Source: an uncultured Candidatus Saccharibacteria bacterium (lineage in GTDB: Bacteria > Patescibacteriota > Saccharimonadia > Saccharimonadales > Saccharimonadaceae). Taken from it: a DNA stretch of 64,000 nucleotides. The notes under the pieces were generated by a model. The model made no database searches and was not told the DNA's origin. It was given only the letters and a program-made list of their open reading frames with translations. This document shows positions 9,151-54,898 of this stretch, in pieces. Position 1 is the stretch's first letter, and the number at the start of each line of letters is the position of its first letter. The DNA lies in the NCBI GenBank assembly GCA_963528575.1, contig CAURUS010000001.1, forward strand, positions 108,807-172,806, given 5' to 3'. A program made the position numbers and the translations under genes.

Positions 9151-9227
9151 TGGTACCCCGAGCAGGGTTCGAACCTGCGGCCTTGAGCTTAGAAGTCTCC
9201 TGCTCTATCCAGCTGAGCTATCGGGGC
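9151..9227 (-). tRNA. tRNA-Arg (anticodon TCT), CCA encoded
   Basis: GCCCCGA/TCGGGGT acceptor (G1.U72), D-arm GCTC-AGCTGGATA-GAGC, loop CTTCTAA, T-arm GCAGG-TTCGAAC-CCTGC. The anticodon stem has only 3 Watson-Crick pairs (GGAGA/GCTCA). Confidence 0.8.
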
Positions 9228-9328
9228 ACTCTGAAAATGTATTTAGTCGCCCGATTCGCTTAGACAAAAGCTGGATAGAGCTATGCGATTTTTGTCGCTG
9301 AGGGCTCGCCAGCTGAGCTATCGGGGCA
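9209..9328 (-). repeat. Direct repeat: 5' 20 nt of tRNA-Arg(TCT) duplicated exactly 100 nt upstream (displaced tRNA 5' fragment at 9309-9328)
   Basis: ccagctgagctatcggggca occurs at 9209-9228 (inside the tRNA) and 9309-9328. The spacer contains agctggatagagc (9269-9281), the reverse complement of D-arm 9202-9214. Confidence 0.9.
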
Positions 9329-9335
9329 AATATTT

Positions 9336-9410
9336 TGGTGCGGGTGCGGAGAATCGAACTCCGATCTCGAGTTTGGAAAACTCGCATACTAACCGCTGTA
9401 CTACACCCGC
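9336..9410 (-). tRNA. tRNA-Gly (anticodon TCC), CCA encoded
   Basis: GCGGGTG/CACCCGC acceptor, arm CGAGT-TTTCCAA-ACTCG, T-arm CGGAG-TTCGATT-CTCCG. TATAAT lies 9 nt upstream of the mature 5' end. Confidence 0.9.
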
Positions 9411-9451
9411 GCACTATACATTATATCATTACGTTAGTGTATAATAAAAGC

Positions 9452-9871
9452 ATGGGACGTTTATTTGACCGCTTCTCAACTAATAGCACACAGAGCGATG
9501 CTATGCATTCAAGCGGATTAACCAATAACAAGCCACAGATTGGTGGCAGGATTGCCAAAAATAGCTTTCAACAGCGCCAAAGCACCAACACTAACCGGCA
9601 ATATATCGGCGCATACAAGGATTCTGGAGTCAGAAACGCTTATCGCAAAGCGTGGCAAGACCAGAAAATCGCCGCAGCCAGCACCAATGGCACGCAAGCG
9701 ACTAATAGCAACCAGCCGCAAAGCTCGCGGGTCTCTGATGCAAACTCGCGAAGCGCAGGAACCACGCAAACAAATAAATCGTCGCTCATTACACCTACGA
9801 CCGAACCGACTGTTCCGTCGCGTACTTTCACCGAGCCGATCAAGCCGTCGCGCGACCCGTTCAACCGATAG
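9452..9871 (+). CDS. Hypothetical basic, Q/N/S/T-rich, probably disordered protein (139 aa)
   Basis: ATG at 9452 lies 6 nt after TATAAT (9440-9445). A terminator hairpin follows at 9890-9934. No recognisable domain. The longer 9335 ORF start overlaps tRNA-Gly. Confidence 0.45.
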   Translation: MGRLFDRFSTNSTQSDAMHSSGLTNNKPQIGGRIAKNSFQQRQSTNTNRQYIGAYKDSGVRNAYRKAWQDQKIAAASTNGTQATNSNQPQSSRVSDANSRSAGTTQTNKSSLITPTTEPTVPSRTFTEPIKPSRDPFNR

Positions 9872-9889
9872 TATTTATGATTTAGAGTC

Positions 9890-9934
9890 AAATAAAACAC
9901 CCGAGACTAATGAAGAAAACCGGGTGTTTTATTT
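9890..9934. terminator. Bidirectional intrinsic terminator (14-bp stem)
   Basis: aaataaaacacccg ... cgggtgttttattt, between the plus-strand ORF and the 3' end of tRNA-His. Confidence 0.6.
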
Positions 9935-10011
9935 GGGGCGAAAGATGGGATTCGAACCCACGGCCTCCGGAGCCACAATCCAGCGCTCTAACCAACTGAG
10001 CTACTTCCGCC
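9934..10011 (-). tRNA. tRNA-His (anticodon GTG) with encoded G-1 and C73, CCA encoded
   Basis: G(-1)+GCGGAAG/CTTTCGC acceptor, loop TTGTGGC, T-arm GTGGG-TTCGAAT-CCCAT, discriminator C. Confidence 0.9.
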
Positions 10012-10215
10012 ATAATGAATACTACGAAATGTACTAGCAGAATCTTGTCAGTTGGTTAGAGCGAGCGCTATTTTTGATGCTCACGGCTGTCCAACTGAGC
10101 TACTTCCGCCATAATGAATACTACGAAATGTACTAGCAGAATCTTGTCAGTTGGTTAGAGCGAGCGCTATTTTTGATGCTCACGGCTGTCCAACTGAGCC
10201 ACTTCCGCCACATTA
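9992..10215 (-). repeat. 99-nt tandem repeat (2 identical copies plus a diverged partial third), each starting with the 5' 20 nt of tRNA-His
   Basis: Copies at 9992-10090 and 10091-10189 are identical by eye. The third starts at 10190 (gagcCac variant). Each spacer carries tcagttggttagagcg (10048-10063, 10147-10162), the reverse complement of D-arm 9984-9999. Confidence 0.9.
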
Positions 10216-10265
10216 CCCCCTTCTCGGGGTATTTATTACTATAGCAGACAGGCGCTTGATTGTCA

Positions 10266-11789
10266 CTATTCCCAAACGGTTTCGATATCTGCACCTAGCG
10301 AGTTCAGGCGGTTAGCAATATCTTCGTAGCCGCGATTGATATTGTAAACATCGCGCAGTACCGATTTGCCAGGCGCCGCCAACATCGCTAGCAAAATCAC
10401 CACGCTCGGACGCAGTGCGGCTGGCGCTGTGATATCAGCCGGCTTCCAGCGAGTCGGGCCAGAGATATAAACCCGGTGCGGATCGACCATATTTACTTGA
10501 GCATTCATTTTAGTTAGCTCAGTAAAGTAGATTGCTCGATTTTCGTAGCTCCAATCGTGGATCAACGTGCGGCCCTTGGCTACCGTGGCGCATAATCCTA
10601 AGAACGGTAGATTATCCATGTTGATACCCGGAAACGGCAGAGCATGAATCTTATCTTTCGGAGCATGTAATTCGGATTTTTTGAGCACGATATCAACTAG
10701 ACGAGTGCAACCATTGCGCGCCATGTACTCTTCGGAAATATCGTATTGCAGACCCATACCCGCCAAAGTCGCTAGCTCTAGCTCCATAAATTCAATCGGC
10801 ACGCGCCTGATAGTAATTTCTGAACCAGTCACGACACCAGCCGCCACGAAACTCATCGCTTCAATTGGGTCTTCGCTTGGGAAGTACTCGACGTCACAGT
10901 CAATTGATTTTTTGCCAGTAATCTTGAGAACAGTGGTACCGATGCCCTCTATTTTGACACCTAGCTTTTCTAGGAAGAAACAAACATCTTGCACCATATA
11001 GTTCGGGCTAGCATTGCGAATAATAGTCGTACCATCATAAAGCGCCGCCGCCATAACGACATTCTCGGTGACCGTATCGCCGCGCTCGGTCAAAATAATT
11101 GCTCGATCAACTCGCTGCGGTTTAGCCGTGGCAATATAGTTGTCATTGGCTGCTTCGACGCTCAAACCAAACGGTGCTAGACCCGCCATATGCGGTTCAA
11201 CCGTCCGCGTGCCTAGGCTGCAACCGCCAGCAAACGGTATATTGAACGTCTCGTATTGGTGCAATAGCGGACCCAAAAACATAATGATACTGCGCGTTCG
11301 CTTAGCGGCCTCGACATCCATACTGTCGAGCTGCAAGGCTTTCGGCGGATCAATCTCGAGGTCGTGCTCGCTAATCCAGCGGCATCGCACGCCTATACTT
11401 TCCAGAACCTCAATAATTCGATTAACTTCCTCAATCCGTGCTACCCGGCGCAGCGTCGTTTTGCCTTTGTTGAGTAGACTAGCGCATAGCAATCCAACAG
11501 CAGCGTTCTTGCTAGTTTTGATTTCAATTTCACCATGCAATTCCCGGCCGCCGTTGATACGAAAGTTAGTTTTGCCCGAGCTATTAATCCGTACTATTTC
11601 GCTTGACAGTACCTCGCCGATACGCGCGATCATTTCGAGACTGATATTCTGCTTGCCGTTCTCAATTCGATTAATTGCCGACTGGCTAGTGCCAAGCTCC
11701 TCTGCCAGTTCGTTTTGAGTCATATTGCGTGCTTGGCGCGTTTCTTGGATGAGCGCGCCAATATTTTTGAGATACTTCGCCGTTTTCAT
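10266..11789 (-). CDS. murA: XRE-family HTH domain fused to UDP-N-acetylglucosamine 1-carboxyvinyltransferase (MurA)
   Basis: N-term NMTQNELAEELGTSQSAINRIENGKQNISLEMIARI (HTH_3). Then the MurA fold: KTSKNAAVGLLCASLL..., catalytic Cys loop FAGGCSLGTRTVEPH. Start set at ATG 11789, immediately downstream of a consensus promoter. Confidence 0.85.
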   Translation of the reverse strand: MKTAKYLKNIGALIQETRQARNMTQNELAEELGTSQSAINRIENGKQNISLEMIARIGEVLSSEIVRINSSGKTNFRINGGRELHGEIEIKTSKNAAVGLLCASLLNKGKTTLRRVARIEEVNRIIEVLESIGVRCRWISEHDLEIDPPKALQLDSMDVEAAKRTRSIIMFLGPLLHQYETFNIPFAGGCSLGTRTVEPHMAGLAPFGLSVEAANDNYIATAKPQRVDRAIILTERGDTVTENVVMAAALYDGTTIIRNASPNYMVQDVCFFLEKLGVKIEGIGTTVLKITGKKSIDCDVEYFPSEDPIEAMSFVAAGVVTGSEITIRRVPIEFMELELATLAGMGLQYDISEEYMARNGCTRLVDIVLKKSELHAPKDKIHALPFPGINMDNLPFLGLCATVAKGRTLIHDWSYENRAIYFTELTKMNAQVNMVDPHRVYISGPTRWKPADITAPAALRPSVVILLAMLAAPGKSVLRDVYNINRGYEDIANRLNSLGADIETVWE

Positions 11790-11795
11790 GTCACC

Positions 11796-11824
11796 ATAAT
11801 ATACCTGATATGATATATTGTCAA
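11796..11824 (-). promoter_or_regulatory. Sigma70-type promoter TTGACA-17-TATTAT, 6 nt before the ATG (leaderless)
   Basis: Minus strand TTGACA (11824-11819), 17-nt spacer, TATTAT (11801-11796), GGTGAC, ATG 11789. Confidence 0.65.
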
Positions 11825-11912
11825 GAAATTTAATCGCGACCAACTCTATTTCAAAACGTTACAGTAAATGATTATAAGTGCTAAAATATAGATAAGAAAA
11901 AGGAGGATAATC

Positions 11913-13175
11913 ATGACAGACATCGCAGTTGCTGATTGCATCGCCGGCGAAGAAGAGCGCCAGCGCAACGGTTTGGAACTAATACCAAGCGAAAATTACG
12001 TCAGCAAAAACGTTCGCGAAGCGCTTGGCAGCGTTTTTACCAATAAATACAGCGAGGGCTACCCCGGTCGACGCTACTACGGCGGCCAAGAATTCACCGA
12101 CCGCGTCGAACAGCTAGCCATCGACCGCGCCAAAAAATTATTCCGCGCTGACCACGCCAATGTCCAGCCTCACAGCGGTGCGCCAGCTAATGAAGCAGTT
12201 TACAGTGCTTGGTGCCAGCCGGGCGACACTATCTTGGCGATGGACTTGAGCCATGGCGGGCACCTGACGCACGGCTCGCCTGTCACCCGCAGCGCTAACT
12301 TATACAACTTCGTCCCGTACAAAATGAAAAATATCGAAACTGGCGAAATTGATTACGAAGAGATTCGCCGCTTAGCACATGAGCATCAGCCGCGGATTAT
12401 TTTGGCTGGTTTCAGCGCCTACCCGCGCGAACTGGATTGGGCTAAATTTGCCGAAATCGGCCGCGAAATAAATAACTGTCTGCTGATGGCTGATGTAGCA
12501 CATATTGCTGGATTGATCGCTGGCGGCGTAGCCAAGAATCCGCTTGATTACGGCTTTCACGTCATGACTACCACCACCCACAAGACACTGCGCGGTCCTC
12601 GCGGCGGTTTAATACTCAGTATGGGCAAGGTGACTAGTCCGCTCAAAAAACCCGCCAAAACGCTTGAGAACATCCCCACGCTGATAGATCGAGCGGTATT
12701 TCCGGGTATGCAGGGCGGCCCGCATATGAACACCATCGCCGCCAAAGCGGTAGCTTTCGGCGAGGCGCTGCAGCCCGAGTTCCGCGACTACGCGAAAAAT
12801 ATCGTCGCTAACGCCGCACGGCTAGCCGAAGAACTGCAAAAACGCGGCTTCCAATTAGTGACTGGCGGCACCAGCAATCACTTGATATTAGCCGACATCA
12901 ACAAGAGTTTTGGTATCGATGGCAAAACTGCCGAGATCGCTATCGATAAGATCGGTCTAACACTAAACGCCAACGCCGTACCCGACGACCCGCTACCGAT
13001 GTTCCGGCCTAGCGGCATCCGCCTAGGCACGCCCGCTATCACCACCCGCGGCTGCCAACCCGACGACATGTCGCGAATCGCTGAGTGGATCAAGCAAGCG
13101 ATTGACGCTCGTGAGGACGAGGGGAAATTAGGAGTTTTGCGCGAGGAAGTAAGGAAGTTTTGTAGAGAATTATAG
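11913..13175 (+). CDS. glyA: Serine hydroxymethyltransferase
   Basis: 420 aa, ...LIPSENY...[14 protein letters not shown]...; AAAGGAGG RBS 8 nt upstream. Confidence 0.95.
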
Positions 13176-49055: not shown

Positions 49056-49083
49056 AAATAGTCCGACGTTTGCGGACTATTTT
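49056..49083. terminator. Bidirectional terminator
   Basis: aaatagtccg-acgtttg-cggactattt. Confidence 0.6.
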
Positions 49084-50056
49084 AATCTCTCTTTAACATC
49101 ACCATAAACGCTTCACTCGGAATGTCAACCTTGCCGAAGCGTTTCATACGCTTTTTGCCGCGAGCTTGTTTGGCGAGAAGTTTCTTTTTGCGGCTGACAT
49201 CGCCGCCGTAGAGGTAGCCGGTGACATCTTTGCGGTAAGCGCCGATGTTTTCGCGGGCGATAAATTTGCCGCCGATTGCCGCCTGTAATGCCACTTCAAA
49301 GCTCTGGCGCGGCACCACGTCTTTCAATTTCTTGACGATTTCGCGACCCAAACCTGGTGCCTCCGAACGGTGACACATCACGCTCAGCGCATCAACCATT
49401 TCGCCCGCTACATAAAAATCAACGCGCACCAAATCTTCCGGCTGATAGCCCGCCAGCTCATAATTAAACGAACCGTAGCCGCTGGTCACCGACTTCAATT
49501 GATCATAAAAATCCGTCAGCAGATTTGCCAGCGGCGCCGTAAAGGAAATCAGCGCCCGCTCGTCGATGTAGCTGAGGTTTTTCTGCCGGCCGCGCTTGGC
49601 GACAATCAGCTGAATCACCGCACCGATGTAGTCCTGCGGCACCACAATTTCACCGTCAATCCACGGCTCGCGAATTTCTTTGATCTGCGCTGGGTCAGGT
49701 AGTTCGCTGGCCGATTTGATATCCAACTCCTCGCCGTTCGTCAAACTAACTTGATAATCCGTACTCGGATTGGTGACGATGAGATCCAAATTATACTCGC
49801 GCTCCAGCCGCTCGCGAATGATATCCATGTGTAGAAGCCCCAAAAAGCCAATCCGCACACCATACCCCAACACTGGTGAATTCTCCGGCTCAAACTGCAG
49901 CGCTGAATCGCTCAGACTCAGCTTTTCAATAGCCTCTTTCAGGTCATTATAATCTTCGTTAGACACCGGAAAAAAGCCCGCGTAGACGAAGGGTTTAACT
50001 TCTTTGTAGCCGGGGAGGGGTTGGATGGTGATATGAGACATATTAGTAAAGTGCAT
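49082..50056 (-). CDS. lepA: Elongation factor 4 (LepA), C-terminal fragment (domains III, V, CTD) of a split gene
   Basis: ...ITIQPLPGYKEVKPFVYAGFFPV...GFLGLLHMDIIRERLEREY...YGGDVSRKKKLL..QARGKKRMK. Continues exactly where ORF 53912..54898 stops. Confidence 0.9.
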   Translation of the reverse strand: MHFTNMSHITIQPLPGYKEVKPFVYAGFFPVSNEDYNDLKEAIEKLSLSDSALQFEPENSPVLGYGVRIGFLGLLHMDIIRERLEREYNLDLIVTNPSTDYQVSLTNGEELDIKSASELPDPAQIKEIREPWIDGEIVVPQDYIGAVIQLIVAKRGRQKNLSYIDERALISFTAPLANLLTDFYDQLKSVTSGYGSFNYELAGYQPEDLVRVDFYVAGEMVDALSVMCHRSEAPGLGREIVKKLKDVVPRQSFEVALQAAIGGKFIARENIGAYRKDVTGYLYGGDVSRKKKLLAKQARGKKRMKRFGKVDIPSEAFMVMLKRD

Positions 50057-50111
50057 TATAACATTTTTGTCCGAAGACGTCGATTAAGCAACGTATTTCA
50101 CAAAAACCACG

Positions 50112-50831
50112 CTAATTGATATACCGCTCAATACGCTTAGCTCGCAGAGTTAGCACCTCAGTCAAGCCTTGCAAATATGCCGTATACTGCTCAACAGTCT
50201 GAGGTAACGGTGACGATTGAAAATCATCAAAATCTGTTAGTATTTTAACTTGGTATTTATCATCAACAAAATCTTGCAACAAGAAAAAATCGACATAGCC
50301 CTGAAAATCACCAAACCACTCAAAAAAGTCACGATAACGATCAAAAACATTAGCGAGTGGGCTGTCTTTACCTTGATACCAGCGGGCAATACATTCTAAA
50401 GTCAGGTCAAACCGATCACCAATTTTGCGGTGCCAACCTCTCGCACGATTGATGGTCTGCGTTCCGCCGCGTAGTTCGCTGGGGAAAATAATCTCTGAGC
50501 CGATGCGCCAATCAATATTATCTATTGCCGTCAAAGTATCTCGTGATGTCTGCTCAACAATCAGCTTATTGCGCTTCCAAGTTTCAAAAGTAGCTACCAT
50601 ATTATCACTTGAAACAGGAATCTGGCGCCGACCATCACTAGCCATCAAGTACGCTCCTTGATCCAACATAGTCAGCTGACGACCGTCAGGCAGTGGTTTA
50701 GTCCATAATTCAGCATGATAGCGCTTTAACGTCGGGCTGTGCTGATCTGGATCTTTATTGTTAGCGTCTTGACGACAATCAAACCAAACATCAATCATTA
50801 GTGTCGCTCCTTTCTTGGTACTAATTTGCAT
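50112..50831 (-). CDS. Hypothetical protein (239 aa), unknown family
   Basis: ORF trimmed to ATG 50831 because the 50990 start overlaps the upstream gene by 130 nt. Acidic C-terminus FFEWFGDFQGYVDFFLLQDFVDD. Confidence 0.6.
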   Translation of the reverse strand: MQISTKKGATLMIDVWFDCRQDANNKDPDQHSPTLKRYHAELWTKPLPDGRQLTMLDQGAYLMASDGRRQIPVSSDNMVATFETWKRNKLIVEQTSRDTLTAIDNIDWRIGSEIIFPSELRGGTQTINRARGWHRKIGDRFDLTLECIARWYQGKDSPLANVFDRYRDFFEWFGDFQGYVDFFLLQDFVDDKYQVKILTDFDDFQSSPLPQTVEQYTAYLQGLTEVLTLRAKRIERYIN

Positions 50832-50859
50832 ATCGCATACAATATACAAATTAAAATAC

Positions 50860-51843
50860 TCAATCCGCCGCAATAACGTCCCCAACAGACCGCCGCTTGG
50901 AATAAGCCTGCCGCTCGCCATAGCCGATGCGTAGCAAAATAGTCGGGTATTCTCCAGCCAGACCCAGCGTCCTTGCCATCTCTGAGGCAATCTCTGCTTC
51001 TTCGTTTGGCTGGTTCAGATAGGCATGAGCGATCCCAAGTTCCGTGGCAGTCAGTAAGAAACGCTGCAGCGTCCGACCCAAGTTCACCCATTCGCGCCGA
51101 CTATTTTCTCTCGTCGTAAAAAGAACCAGATGAGAAGCCGATGCTATCTTTTCGCGATCGGCCTTATTCTGCATCTTAGCATTGATAGCCATCGACATGA
51201 TTGGCTCAGCCATCCAGCGCGGCACATTAGGCGCGCCAAACACGGCGTAACTCAGCCCATCAAGTGTTTGATCTTGATGCTTCTTATTAAATCGCATCCA
51301 GCTTTTCAATTCAGCCTTAAACGCCTCTTTTTGCATTTGACGCGTATTGCCCTGAAGAACGTATTGCTCAATATCATTAAACTGTTTAGTTTGACGCGCG
51401 TAATAATGAACCGAGATACCCTTTTCACTGCGGATAGATTGTAATTTCTTTAGTACATCTAAGGCAATTTCCTCACCGTTATAAACACTGCGGTTAGTCT
51501 GCCGCGCGTCTATCTGATTGAACAATGGATTTGGCTTAATATCCGCCTTTTCCATGAGCGAAACCGTGATAACCCCCTTATCACCAACCGAAACGGCAGA
51601 TTTATAGCCCTTAGTTTGCGCCGCCAAGCAAAGATTCTCTACTGCACAGCCCAAACTCACAAACAACTCCCTGTCATCAGGATCAACTACCGGCAGCCTT
51701 CTGTCAAAATCAGGGTGAATTTCTACTGCCGACTCGTTCTGACGAAAGCGCCACGGCTGAGTATTATGACCTGATGGCGCCTTGACAGCTTGCGCAACCA
51801 AAAATTCAAAGTTAGCTGATGATATATTGTTACTGCGAGACAT
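50860..51843 (-). CDS. Nitroreductase-family (tandem-domain, Acg-like) FMN oxidoreductase
   Basis: AVKAPSGHNTQPWRF motif, about 330 aa. Alternative starts at 51852 and 51864. Confidence 0.75.
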   Translation of the reverse strand: MSRSNNISSANFEFLVAQAVKAPSGHNTQPWRFRQNESAVEIHPDFDRRLPVVDPDDRELFVSLGCAVENLCLAAQTKGYKSAVSVGDKGVITVSLMEKADIKPNPLFNQIDARQTNRSVYNGEEIALDVLKKLQSIRSEKGISVHYYARQTKQFNDIEQYVLQGNTRQMQKEAFKAELKSWMRFNKKHQDQTLDGLSYAVFGAPNVPRWMAEPIMSMAINAKMQNKADREKIASASHLVLFTTRENSRREWVNLGRTLQRFLLTATELGIAHAYLNQPNEEAEIASEMARTLGLAGEYPTILLRIGYGERQAYSKRRSVGDVIAAD

Positions 51844-51899
51844 TCTTACCATAATTCTACCCAATACGCGAGCCTTCCCATCTCGTTAGCTACTTCTTA

Positions 51900-52010
51900 T
51901 GACCAAGTATACTCGCCCTATAGGAGCGAGGTCAATCAATATCACCAAGACTAAGCTTTCAGCCATTCTTCTTGAAATCATTGTAATCTTCGTTGGATGC
52001 CAGGAAAAAT
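51900..52010 (-). pseudogene. lepA: Degenerate duplicate of a lepA segment (corresponds to FFPVSNEDYNDLKEAIEKLSLSD of the C-fragment)
   Basis: 51978-52009 tcattgtaatcttcgttggatgccaggaaaaa versus lepA 49944-49975 tcattataatcttcgttagacaccggaaaaaa (26 of 32 identical). Translates FFLASNEDYNDFKKNG*, then KLSLGD after a frameshift. Confidence 0.7.
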
Positions 52011-52135
52011 ATTATTAGATTCTAACTATTTGGTATTATATCAGCTCAGCGTTTTCGTATAAACGCACAATAAATCGCTCCTTGCACGCCTATTTATTCT
52101 CAGCGAATTATTCCTTGCGCATACTGCGGCCTAAT

Positions 52136-52606
52136 TTATAACTGCTCAAAAATCTTATGAGCTTGATTCTTGCCAATAGTCTGAATCAATTCAGCGTAGC
52201 CCATCCACCGCCCGCGTTTAGTTTTGTCGCGACGATAATCCTTCTCATCGGTGATATCGCCCTTAACTATCGCATCAACATTATGCCAAGCAATCCAAGG
52301 TGTATCATCGCTCATAAAGCTATAATCTAGATGAACATGATTTTCGTTGATTAGTTTATAGTCTGACGACGAAAATCCGCGTGCGTACAACTCACGTAGA
52401 ATAACGTCTGCCAGCTCGACAAAACTGTCAGCCGTAACGTATAAAAAGTCATCATACTCCTCGCCAAGCTCGTACGATCGACCATTCATAAAAACACAAT
52501 GCAAATCATCGTCGACAACTTTTTCATCCAGCCACACGCGGCGGTCGCGTGCTATCGGAATCACCCGGCAGCTAATTTTCTCTGTAAAATTTTTGAAGTT
52601 ATTCAT
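52136..52606 (-). CDS. Hypothetical cytosolic protein (156 aa)
   Basis: ORF 19 nt downstream of the preceding gene. No motif recognised. Confidence 0.55.
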   Translation of the reverse strand: MNNFKNFTEKISCRVIPIARDRRVWLDEKVVDDDLHCVFMNGRSYELGEEYDDFLYVTADSFVELADVILRELYARGFSSSDYKLINENHVHLDYSFMSDDTPWIAWHNVDAIVKGDITDEKDYRRDKTKRGRWMGYAELIQTIGKNQAHKIFEQL

Positions 52607-52625
52607 TCTGTATCCAATTTCCGCC

Positions 52626-53264
52626 TCATGCGCTTTGCGTATCTATATACGATGCGCTATTTAATATTTCTTCAAATACTTTACTATTTTGTTTCCAATA
52701 TTCATTGTAAGAGAATACCGATATGTAACGAAGACATCCGTCTTCGCGGCCAACAGCTAAGCGTGTTACCATTTTAGTATTTTCAGGTCGAGAACCGCAA
52801 CTTGATGTAATTCTAACAATACCAACTAAACCATTTTGTTCCAAAGTATCGTCCTTGATATCGACAGTCGCTTGACAATTTTCCAATCCCTTAATAGTAA
52901 AGAATCTTTTCGCGTCTTCGCGCAACTCTTTGCTATCATAAGCCATTTTGCGCACTAATTCATAAGCTTCATCAGGCGCAGCTGGTAACACCAACCGCTC
53001 CGAATCCTGAGTCACGCCAACACCGCTAATTGACTTATTATCCTTGCCCAGTTTATCGCCGTAACCTTCAGTTTTACCGTTTTTTACATCAATCCTTTGC
53101 CACTGCTTTGGTATTAGAAAACGGGTTTTCTGAGTTCTTGCTTCAACCAAATTTTTACTTTTCAGATAGACTGGCACTTCATGCAGCAAATAATCATACG
53201 AAGTATAAGCGCTTACACTGAAACACACTAAAGCTAAGATTAATTTGAGTATTTTTGTTTTCAT
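52626..53264 (-). CDS. Hypothetical secreted protein/lipoprotein candidate (212 aa)
   Basis: Signal-like MKTKILKLILALVCFSVSAYT. TAAAAT lies 6 nt upstream of the ATG. Confidence 0.55.
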   Translation of the reverse strand: MKTKILKLILALVCFSVSAYTSYDYLLHEVPVYLKSKNLVEARTQKTRFLIPKQWQRIDVKNGKTEGYGDKLGKDNKSISGVGVTQDSERLVLPAAPDEAYELVRKMAYDSKELREDAKRFFTIKGLENCQATVDIKDDTLEQNGLVGIVRITSSCGSRPENTKMVTRLAVGREDGCLRYISVFSYNEYWKQNSKVFEEILNSASYIDTQSA

Positions 53265-53292
53265 TTGTACATTTTAATAATAGCACACGTTC

Positions 53293-53901
53293 CTACAGTT
53301 CTACATCCGGCAAGTCCTTCAATTTCTTGCCATCAAAACAAAAGTAGGCTGCACCCTGGTACGCGCCGCTATCATTAACTTGATTCCTGTCCTCAAATAT
53401 TTTTCGCACCAGCGGCGACAAAAACCACCTCTGCCCGCCGTACTCAACTTCGCGTTCACCGACAACTTTAGCGACAATCGTCTGGTCTTTACTAAAGACA
53501 ATTTTATCGCCGTTTTTGAGGCCTTTTCGATAAAAGCTAAACTTTTGATTACTGTTCTTGGCTTTGGTGATTTTATCAAATTCCGCTTCTTTATTTTTCT
53601 GCTCCGGAAAGACCACCTCGCCCTCAAACGACAGCAACAGTTGTCGCACCAAATCATAATCAAGCGCAAAAAGCTCGCTACTACCGACTCGATGCTTGGC
53701 AAATATTTCGTGCAATAGCGTTTCTTTTTCGGAATAATCAGCCACCTCGATCGCAAACAACCGCTTCAAACCAACCACATTGTAGTAGCCGTTCGCCTCG
53801 AGAAAGCGCATCCGCTCTGGGTACTGCTTGGTTTGTGTCTTGCCGATTTTGATAAGACCTGACACTGCAGTGGTCATGACGTAGATGATACCTTTGCTCA
53901 C
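53293..53901 (-). CDS. T5orf172 (GIY-YIG superfamily) domain protein with C-terminal DUF4357/RAMA-like domain
   Basis: GIIYVMTT...GLIKIGKTQT...RMRFL...EKETLLHEIFAKHRV..SELFAL. GTG start 6 nt after AGGAGG, 10 nt downstream of the lepA N-fragment stop. Confidence 0.75.
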   Translation of the reverse strand: MSKGIIYVMTTAVSGLIKIGKTQTKQYPERMRFLEANGYYNVVGLKRLFAIEVADYSEKETLLHEIFAKHRVGSSELFALDYDLVRQLLLSFEGEVVFPEQKNKEAEFDKITKAKNSNQKFSFYRKGLKNGDKIVFSKDQTIVAKVVGEREVEYGGQRWFLSPLVRKIFEDRNQVNDSGAYQGAAYFCFDGKKLKDLPDVEL

Positions 53902-53911
53902 TTCTAGCCTC

Positions 53912-54898
53912 CTATTTGGTCTCTTTCGTGAAGTACTTCTTCAGCGTCACCGTATCACCCACCCGCGCTTCACGCGTGGTTTTTAGGTTGGTGACGATGT
54001 AGCCAATTTCACCAGTATCCAGCGATGGGTCGGCAATCATACCGGGGCTAAGGTGACCAACTTCTAGTGCCAAACCATTAGCACTGGTCGCCATCATGTG
54101 AATCGCTTCGCCTTTTTTAATCTGGCCGTCAACCACTCGCACGTACAAAATCACACCGCGGTAATCATCATAATAACTATCAAAAATCAGCGCCCGTGTC
54201 GGATCGTCCGGCTGGCCAGTTGGTGCTGGGATTCGCTCAACAATCGCCTCCAAAACCTGATCGACATTCTGCCCGGTTTTAGCAGAAATATGAATAATTT
54301 CGCTTTCATCACAGCCCAGCAAATTGATCACCTGCTTGGACACCCGTGGTACATCGGCAGCCGGCAAATCAACCTTGTTGAGCACTGGGATAATCGTGAG
54401 ATCTTGCTCCATCGCCAGGTACACATTCGCCAGCGTCTGCGCCTGAATGCCCTGGCTGGCGTCAACCACCAACAACGCGCCCTCGCACGCCTGCAGGCTG
54501 CGCGATACTTCGTAGCTAAAATCGACATGGCCGGGCGTATCGATAAGGTTGAGATCGTAAGTAACCGACCGCAACGGCCTGTTAGCATCGACTTCGCTGG
54601 CACTTTTCTCTTCAGGCCGCTCGGCCGCCAACTGATCTAGCTTGCGCTCTTGGCCTCGCTTTGCCGGAAAGGCAAAGCCTTCAGAGAAAAGACCAGCAGC
54701 AGTCGACTGATATCTCATCCGCACCGGCGCGAGCTTAATGGTGATGCCCTTTTCACGCTCCAAATCCATCGAATCCAGCAGTTGCGACTTCATCTCGCGC
54801 TTCTCCACCGTCCCCGTCATCTCCATCATCCGATCCGCCAGCGTCGATTTGCCGTGATCGATATGAGCAATGATGCAAAAATTACGGATACGCTCCAC
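53912..54898 (-). CDS. lepA: Elongation factor 4 (LepA), N-terminal fragment (G domain plus domain II) of a split gene
   Basis: [37 protein letters not shown]. Ends ...[21 protein letters not shown]. Confidence 0.9.

Follow-up and report, generated by a model that had tools for sequence, protein, structure and literature searches.

Short inserts in Saccharibacteria tRNA genes that carry an antisense copy of the resident D-arm: a candidate insertion cassette

The subject of this report is a group of tRNA genes in a 64,000-nucleotide (nt) stretch of DNA, referred to below as the window, from an uncultured Candidatus Saccharibacteria bacterium (assembly GCA_963528575.1, contig CAURUS010000001.1, positions 108,807 to 172,806 of the forward strand). 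ARAGORN recognises nine tRNA genes in the window, with a minus-strand cluster of tRNA-His, tRNA-Gly and tRNA-Arg(TCT) and then a plus-strand tRNA-Lys. Upstream of tRNA-Arg(TCT) and of tRNA-His, the beginning of the tRNA occurs again as a displaced fragment, separated from the intact gene by a spacer of about 80 nt that contains an exact reverse complement of that tRNA's own D-arm (hereafter anti-D). Of the readings considered, a small, non-autonomous insertion cassette suits these inserts best. An ENA scaffold of this genome, 719 kb long (locus L001), also contains the sequence of the window, and the labels L001-L099 denote loci fetched from public genomes for comparison. The parts of the two inserts and their immediate surroundings are as follows.

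9151 to 9227, minus strand: intact tRNA-Arg(TCT) (ARAGORN; Rfam tRNA model, 59.8 bits); positions 1-19 of the tRNA are 9209-9227
9228 to 9268, minus strand: right part (linker) of the Arg cassette, with near-neutral evolution (nucleotide diversity, pi, 0.040 versus 0.050 at third codon positions)
9269 to 9281, minus strand: Arg anti-D, the exact reverse complement of tRNA-Arg positions 14-26 (window 9202-9214)
9282 to 9308, minus strand: left end and module of the Arg cassette, CGAGCCCTCAGCGACAAAAATCGCATA
9309 to 9327, minus strand: displaced copy of tRNA-Arg positions 1-19
9336 to 9410: tRNA-Gly, whose CCA end lies 8 nt before the displaced Arg fragment
9934 to 10011, minus strand: intact tRNA-His including G-1 (10011) (ARAGORN, Rfam); its 5' 20 nt are 9992-10011
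10012 to 10047, minus strand: right part (linker) of His unit 1, homologous to the right ends of the Arg-CCG cassette of L087 (p=0.001)
10048 to 10063, minus strand: anti-D of His unit 1, a 16-nt exact reverse complement of the tRNA-His D-arm (9984-9999)
10064 to 10090, minus strand: left end and module of His unit 1, ACAGCCGTGAGCATCAAAAATAGCGCT
10091 to 10110, minus strand: middle copy of tRNA-His positions -1 to 19, identical to the gene
10111 to 10189, minus strand: His unit 2, 100% identical to unit 1 (linker 10111-10146, anti-D 10147-10162, module 10163-10189)
10190 to 10209, minus strand: outermost displaced copy of tRNA-His positions -1 to 19, with one A>G difference
10238 to 10266, minus strand: sigma-70-type consensus promoter, GTGACA-17-TGcTATAGT, 5' of the outermost His fragment (consensus scan)

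A reading of the DNA from its letters and open reading frames (the sequence-only reading) had reported these tRNA-fragment repeats and antisense segments, and all of them are present at the positions that it gave. The 5' 19 nt of tRNA-Arg(TCT) (9209-9227) recur at 9309-9327 across a spacer of 81 nt (9228-9308), within which the anti-D matches the reverse complement of 9202-9214 at 13 of 13 positions. Upstream of tRNA-His, a 99-nt unit, made up of a 79-nt spacer and a 20-nt copy of positions -1 to 19, is present 2.2 times across 9992-10210, so that two identical units lie 5' of the gene; the two anti-D segments (10048-10063 and 10147-10162) are each complementary to 9984-9999 over 16 of 16 positions. 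Matches of this kind within 100 nt upstream of a tRNA are expected by chance at approximately 3e-5 for a 13-mer and 4e-7 for a 16-mer. Each anti-D is exact to the D-arm of its own tRNA and is thus locus specific, as had been proposed. The spacer starts, which were claimed to share a module, agree at 17 of 22 aligned positions, and formal local alignment against shuffled sequences bears this out (p=0.002 for the 27-nt modules, p=0.0002 for the whole spacers). No antisense match of this kind occurs at any of the approximately 170 cassette-free tRNAs of the fetched loci (54-64 Gly, 44 Lys, Glu, Arg-TCG and others).

It should be noted that scaffold L001 has a gap of 100 N within the second His unit (L001 4047-4146, window position ~10140), and therefore the His copy number in this genome depends on assembly. 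Two His units are nonetheless found in independent assemblies, identical in L031 and clearly distinct in L014, L015, L019 and others. Short contigs of close strains also stop in the repeat (L003), which together with the gap indicates that cassette units break short-read assemblies. In L060 and L067 (BNJU01 contigs), the same units contain many single-base indels, even inside tRNAs, which look like errors of noisy assembly.

The inserts have a defined anatomy. The displaced fragment comprises tRNA positions 1-19 (20 nt with G-1 in tRNA-His) and stops after G18-G19 of the D-loop; because the 5' part is duplicated on both sides of the spacer, a contiguous intact gene is left downstream. The left end of the spacer, N-GAGCC-N-TCAGC followed by an A-rich stretch and then GC, restores the D-stem partner, such that fragment and left end together resemble a D-arm with a shortened loop; in the Arg cassette, the junction re-creates a D-arm-like GCTC...GAGC hairpin. 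The anti-D (13-18 nt) extends from tRNA position 12 or 14 to positions 25-31 and is centred on the insertion point. At its 5' side the segment stops at different points and can run on into the anticodon stem with bases specific to the resident tRNA, for a total of 18 nt in L017 and L090. A short sense copy adjoins the anti-D in L017 and L093, resulting in 6+6 palindromes with a loop of 0-1 nt, and a comparable 5+5 junction (GCATC followed by GATGC) is seen by eye in L087. Judged from their sequence, these palindromic junctions bear the signature of a fold-back event. The right part of the spacer is variable, but its end is homologous across tRNAs (His versus Arg-CCG in L087, p=0.001; Arg-CCG versus Lys in L093, p<0.0002). 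The direct repeat measures 19-24 nt across cassettes.

Outside the anti-D, neither the old leader nor the tRNA, on either strand, bears a significant likeness to the spacer (p>0.09); the one exception is in L017, where 8 nt match tRNA positions 4-11 in antisense (p=0.0045). Several possible derivations of the spacer were considered on this basis and dropped. Apart from the L017 match, no significant similarity outside the anti-D supports the whole spacer being a diverged reverse complement of tRNA positions ~50-1. A decayed tandem tRNA pseudogene is not supported, as the Rfam tRNA model gives no match to the units. Derivation of the right part from a copied original promoter or leader by tandem duplication yields no significant similarity (p=0.14-0.43), and for the Arg cassette such an origin is excluded because the upstream sequence is tRNA-Gly. 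A resemblance of the His D-loop to an integron attC-like core site was abandoned, as it is absent in Arg.

Every occupied tRNA has a D-arm of one type, TAGCTCA(G/A)(C/T)TGG(A/T)TAGAGC (TAGCTCARYTGGWTAGAGC). The tRNAs with other D-arms in the fetched loci (64 Gly, 9 Arg-TCG, 6 Glu, as well as Pro and Thr) carry no cassette, and some tRNAs with the target-type D-arm are empty.

The cassette is not confined to the window. A 19-base search pattern, composed of the positions shared by the two window spacers and the preceding GG, was scanned against one genome per species (185,579 species) and matched 34 loci, 29 of them in Saccharibacteria and every one of these directly 3' of a tRNA 5' fragment; the remaining five, in other phyla, are isolated matches due to chance. 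The 29 loci include a third target, Arg-CCT, which in L017 carries two tandem units with an 18-nt antisense match to that tRNA, and a metagenome scan returned the same three targets. Loci that were fetched via murA, the gene upstream of tRNA-His, in order to sample other lineages yielded further cassettes with diverged modules that are invisible to the pattern: Arg-CCG (L087/L088), Lys-CTT (L093) and Arg-TCT (L089-L092 and L098/L099, groups that include two complete genomes). Pattern and murA-based sampling together thus give five occupied tRNA species: Arg-TCT, His, Arg-CCT, Arg-CCG and Lys-CTT. Units are present in more than 80 independent assemblies, among them the complete genomes CP065017.1 and CP064995.1. 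A covariance model built on the left half recovers all these members at E<1e-15, with no other match in 427 kb, while Rfam cmscan with 4227 families at E<=10 matched only tRNAs and offers no family for the units. Further examples therefore exist, and orthologous loci do bear the module; the sequence-only reading had named the lack of both, or a spacer similarity without formal significance, as reasons to give up its proposal, and on all of these points the outcome is in its favour.

Within the window clade (approx. 50 loci), tRNA-His carries one or two units and tRNA-Arg zero, one or two, and genomes only 0.2% apart nearby can differ. In L024, the Arg unit has been lost precisely, whereas the nearest relative, 0.2% distant, retains it; such losses fit recombination between the repeats. 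Module and linker variants are shuffled among His units, as expected from unequal recombination. In the sister lineage L085 (MurA 86% identical), the murA-promoter-tRNA-His layout and the promoter itself are kept without a unit, i.e., the site is empty. When occupancy is placed on a murA tree, Arg-TCT is occupied in the window clade and in L090/L098 and not in L004, L087, L093 or L096, and Lys, Arg-CCG and His are each confined to one lineage, namely L093, L087 and the window clade, respectively. This distribution requires several gains or many losses, between which a tree built from one protein does not discriminate.

Nucleotide diversity was computed after restriction to truly homologous loci. 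It amounts to 0.050 at third codon positions, 0.020-0.025 in flanking intergenic DNA, 0.040 in the Arg linker, 0.011 at module positions outside the search pattern, 0.008 in the displaced fragment, 0.005 in the anti-D and 0-0.010 in tRNAs. The left half of the cassette is thus conserved approximately as other functional intergenic DNA, while the linker drifts. An exceptional conservation of the whole spacer was discarded as a candidate finding, as removal of non-homologous sequences left the linker near neutral and only fragment, module and anti-D conserved. Between the L017 units, approximately 8 of 64 positions differ in leader, fragment and module versus 0 of 46 in anti-D and linker. Substitutions at paired positions within a family are wobble compatible in six cases and disruptive in three, which is no more than neutral transitions give; selection on RNA structure, for which this split was considered as evidence, is consequently not demonstrated, the split not being significant. 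The closing stem covaries between families, as copying of the tRNA alone would produce, and templated correction from the tRNA gene would likewise give the same conservation pattern.

The surroundings of the units bear on how they might be transcribed. On the tRNA strand, the sole sigma-70-type consensus promoter found (GTGACA-17-TATAGT with a TG extension, 10266-10238) precedes the outermost His fragment, and the Arg fragment follows directly after tRNA-Gly; to judge by this order of elements, transcription of the units as a 5' leader (His) or as an inter-tRNA spacer (Arg) is most likely. The promoter-like A/T-rich stretch that had been proposed to follow the anti-D gains no support, since the consensus scan of the tRNA strand detects no promoter in either spacer of the window and places that of tRNA-His farther upstream. 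A promoter within the spacers was accordingly set aside; a perfect TATAAT occurs inside the right end of the cassette in L017 only.

Folding predictions agree with two earlier suggestions, that the displaced fragment can form a hairpin with the anti-D and that the leader can trap the D-arm of the tRNA. Fragment and spacer are predicted to form a hairpin through pairing of the anti-D with the D-loop portion of the fragment. When the fragment is omitted, the anti-D is predicted to pair with the D-arm of the real tRNA and the cloverleaf is lost (z -4.7 and -3.3). The minimum-energy structure of the full precursor also places the anti-D on the real tRNA, with the outer fragment on the 3' acceptor strand (z -4.5, -5.0), so that trapping is predicted both without the fragment and at equilibrium (z -3.3 to -5.0). 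We infer that the hairpin between fragment and anti-D is likely to be the kinetic product because it is transcribed first.

A search for an enzyme, a parent element or a precedent was made in several directions. The approximately 50 open reading frames (ORFs) of the 64-kb window have zero matches to Phage_integrase, Resolvase or transposase. Four viral scans revealed no unit-like context in viral contigs and yielded just chance matches in coding sequence, and a viral or larger parent element was rejected as a candidate. Literature searches turned up only the classical sources of tRNA fragments, which are integrated elements and CRISPR spacers (PMC9897764), and no description of a comparable cassette. 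The cluster does attract other elements in relatives. L089 and L091 (~12260-12450) differ from L090 and L092, which have identical MurA, by an insert of ~190 nt directly after tRNA-His that ends with a second tRNA-His 3' end (GACCCCCATCATTCGCCCCA), i.e., a classical 3'-end att-type scar. Farther downstream, L091 and L092 have large serine recombinase genes, and in L096 and L097 a tyrosine integrase adjoins tRNA-Arg(TCT). These recombinase islands are ordinary and unrelated to the cassette ends.

Taken together, we consider it about an even bet (probability roughly 0.5) that the inserts represent a non-autonomous insertion cassette of ~80-100 nt, specific for one type of tRNA D-arm and residing inside Saccharibacteria tRNA genes. 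The cassette would be transcribed from the original upstream promoter, or from that of an upstream tRNA, as a leader or inter-tRNA spacer, and RNase P cleavage at the intact copy would release a normal tRNA. The displaced fragment would pair first with the anti-D, and the D-arm of the real tRNA would therefore not be trapped. Duplication of the 5' 19 nt and neutralisation of the anti-D by the displaced fragment would thus explain why a cassette is tolerated inside the gene. The anti-D itself might be templated, or re-templated, from the resident tRNA through fold-back template switching at the DNA level, as suggested by the fold-back junctions; template switching is a documented source of reverse-complement copies, which creates and maintains hairpins (PMC8794818). 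New tRNA genes would be reached rarely and in dependence on a near-identical D-arm sequence, and copy number would change via unequal recombination between the 19-20-nt direct repeats. Among the three origins that the sequence-only reading had put forward, a miniature element that targets the D-loop and rebuilds the tRNA 5' end fits best, given the insertion after G18-G19 in five tRNAs, the patchy occupancy and the empty site of the sister lineage. Duplication by template switching, another of the three, accounts for the anti-D, with its variable 5' boundary and palindromes, and not for the conserved ends, which are neither local nor derived from the tRNA. The third, a leader for regulation or processing, is a possible but less likely origin.

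A number of points weigh against this interpretation. No enzyme or means of spread was found, the approximately 50 window ORFs being without integrase, transposase, reverse-transcriptase or Cas domains. The direct repeat begins no more than 5 nt from tRNA +1 in all seven cassette families compared, which counts against untargeted template switching because such a start would not be predicted from it. The arrival of the conserved ends at new tRNA genes and the start of the repeat at +1 do not follow from this interpretation and leave room for a guided or enzymatic mechanism or for a function as a leader. Only five targets are occupied, and the majority of copies are orthologous and vertically inherited, so that any activity must be very low or extinct. 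Given a host tree built from one protein, an old origin with many precise losses thereafter may also underlie the occupancy, and conservation of the left end and anti-D could reflect function instead. Transcription of the cassette and its processing by RNase P are matters that we infer, and at least in L017, with the TATAAT in the right end of its cassette, transcription of the tRNA may start inside the insert.

That the units are selected as a leader is unlikely, in our estimate, though several observations speak for it. In a cis-acting pre-tRNA leader, the anti-D would pair transiently with the nascent D-arm or compete for it and the upstream fragment would act as an anti-anti-D, so that the leader would be a two-state switch timing or tuning folding and RNase P processing, or else a source of stable hairpin RNA. 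Two mutually exclusive stable pairings are indeed predicted; the left end, the anti-D and the fragment vary as little as tRNAs do, while drift is seen in the linker; L090 and L098, whose flanking intergenic DNA is unalignable, still share left end, anti-D and the end of the right part; and the L017 units, as described, are invariant (0/46) in anti-D and linker against ~8/64 differences elsewhere. However, the six compatible and three disruptive substitutions are as neutral transitions predict, several disruptive variants fall in the apical stem, no Rfam family corresponds to the units, and displaced fragments are decaying in L017 and L076. Moreover, the unit is dispensable in L024, and the same tRNAs lack it in sister lineages. 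The notion of a guided or site-specific mobile mini-element appears similarly doubtful. Here, a trans-acting enzyme (a recombinase, a Cas1-like integrase, a reverse transcriptase or other) would recognise the ends, the anti-D, as RNA or single-stranded DNA, would find the D-arm, and insertion after G19 would duplicate the 19-20 nt up to the tRNA start. Such an element would be in keeping with the identical insertion point in five tRNAs, the start of the direct repeat at +1 (within 0-5 nt) in all families, the conserved ends around a target-matched inner segment centred on the insertion point, the D-arm specificity, the tandem arrays and the patchy occupancy. It is harder to reconcile with the absence of integrase, transposase and reverse-transcriptase domains from the ~50 window ORFs, with viral scans that found neither a larger parent element nor a viral copy, with the lack of terminal inverted repeats, with a repeat length that ranges from 19 to 24 nt and with the very few copies per genome, and the fold-back palindromes suggest replication or repair rather than a designed guide. 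Its programmable form, in which pairing of the anti-D with the D-arm directs a predicted trans-acting enzyme to insert after G19 with a 19-nt duplication, is quite improbable in our view.

Two further explanations deserve less credence. The inserts might be scars of classical integration (attL/attR of a lost island) at the 5' part of the tRNA. It is a hallmark of att sites that a tRNA segment is directly repeated and that the repeat stops precisely at the edge of the gene, fragment and left end rebuild a symmetric D-arm-like core, and the cluster is an integration hot spot in relatives, with its serine and tyrosine recombinase islands and 3'-end tRNA-His scar. Nevertheless, the insert has a defined size of 79-100 nt in every lineage and is never gene bearing, it is the 5' and not the 3' part that is restored, and an internal anti-D is foreign to att sites. 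In addition, five tRNA species are used, between which att-carrying elements could not switch without producing chimeric tRNAs, and an origin of this type is very improbable. Independent local duplications or assembly artefacts without common origin, to which the scaffold gap within the His array of this genome might point, are already refuted by the occurrence of units in the >80 independent assemblies, CP065017.1 and CP064995.1 among them, by left and right ends common to different tRNAs and by an Arg insert unrelated to the upstream tRNA-Gly.

The remaining features of the neighbourhood can be summarised briefly. Upstream of tRNA-His, 10266-11843 (minus strand) encodes MurA fused to an N-terminal helix-turn-helix, here and in every relative sampled, and homologues of the protein carry the annotation Candidatus Saccharibacteria; the longest murA ORF begins 18 codons 5' of the start in public gene calls. 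The original tRNA-His leader, between promoter and outermost fragment, contains a small hairpin TACCCCGAGAAGGGGGTA (10214-10231, minus strand), and variants of it in relatives, CCCTGGGAAGGGG and CCCCGAGAAAGGGG, preserve most of the stem. Between tRNA-His and tRNA-Gly lies a small plus-strand ORF (9452-9871, 139 aa, rich in Ser, Thr, Asn and Gln, without a Pfam match), which diverges far faster than its near-invariant flanks (per-site diversity up to 0.16, pairwise distances up to 0.17). In the anticodon stem of tRNA-Arg(TCT) (9151-9227; L014 3364-3440), positions 27-43 and 31-39 are non-Watson-Crick, and the stem differs between species by paired substitutions (GGAGA/GCTCA versus GAGGA/GCCTA). 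Farther along the window, lepA (EF4) is seemingly split (49082-54898, minus strand) into an N-terminal GTPase part (53912-54898) and a C-terminal LepA_C part (49082-50056); the ~3.85 kb between them hold a T5orf172/MUG113 (GIY-YIG-like) gene, two ORFs of no clear family, a nitroreductase gene and a DUF6994 gene, and the interruption of this essential gene may be due to a mobile insertion.

Human-associated and environmental Saccharibacteria carry the cassette within the 5' third of essential tRNA genes, and the gene is saved by the 19-nt duplication. What this means depends on which explanation holds. A guided mini-element would represent a new class of self-restoring, tRNA-homing element in ultra-small bacteria, with a new insertion mechanism and possibly a tool; a leader switch would be a new control of tRNA maturation in organisms with minimal regulation; and a by-product of fold-back repair would be an unusually clear natural record of template switching that builds or maintains hairpins beside structured RNA genes. 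There is also a practical side, as the units break assemblies at contig ends and scaffold gaps, and leftover tRNA fragments may be miscalled by annotation pipelines.

Among known systems, template-switch quasipalindromes (PMC8794818) share with the cassette a perfect reverse-complement copy nearby, a variable boundary and zero-loop junctions; they do not predict its conserved ends, the 19-nt direct repeat or the fixed insertion point. Archaeal and red-algal non-canonical introns and split or permuted tRNAs likewise involve short related inserts, at the D-loop or elsewhere, in several tRNAs and pairing between insert and exon. However, these have no duplicated exon and need a splicing endonuclease and a bulge-helix-bulge motif, whereas the host of the cassette is a bacterium in which the contiguous intact tRNA copy makes splicing unnecessary. 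Given the duplicated 5' exon, the contiguous tRNA and the lack of an Rfam match at E<=10, the cassette does not fall among tRNA introns, whether of group I or of the archaeal bulge-helix-bulge type, and as Rfam gave only tRNAs it does not fall among T-box-like leaders or known small RNAs either. CRISPR arrays and Cas1 (casposon) integration resemble it in the 19-20-nt repeat, the 79-81-nt spacer, the adjacent leader and the duplication of the repeat upon insertion. In contrast to CRISPR, no cas genes are found in the window, the spacers are mutually homologous and the repeat is the start of a functional tRNA. With miniature inverted-repeat elements and other non-autonomous insertion sequences, the cassette has in common a length of ~100 nt, conserved ends, a non-coding nature, flanking direct repeats and spread within a phylum. 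It differs from them in that terminal inverted repeats are absent by inspection (Arg TGAGCC versus ACTCTG; His ACAGCC versus ATAATG), the direct repeat measures 19-24 nt rather than 2-10 nt, there are one to three copies per genome, the site in the D-loop is strict and the inner segment matches the target.

To our knowledge, tRNA genes are classic landing sites of mobile DNA, always on the 3' side and for large integrase-bearing elements. As with the tRNA-targeting integrative elements (phages, integrative and conjugative elements, genomic islands), the cassette is inserted in a tRNA gene, has a direct repeat extending to the exact gene end, keeps the gene intact and forms tandem copies. These elements, the only type described in PMC9897764, duplicate the 3' part of the gene and bear an integrase along with kilobases of cargo, whereas the cassette duplicates the 5' 19 nt, measures 79-100 nt, is free of genes, occupies five tRNA species and contains an antisense copy of its target. 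The cassette seems to be a variant of tRNA-gene-associated insertion that has not been described before.

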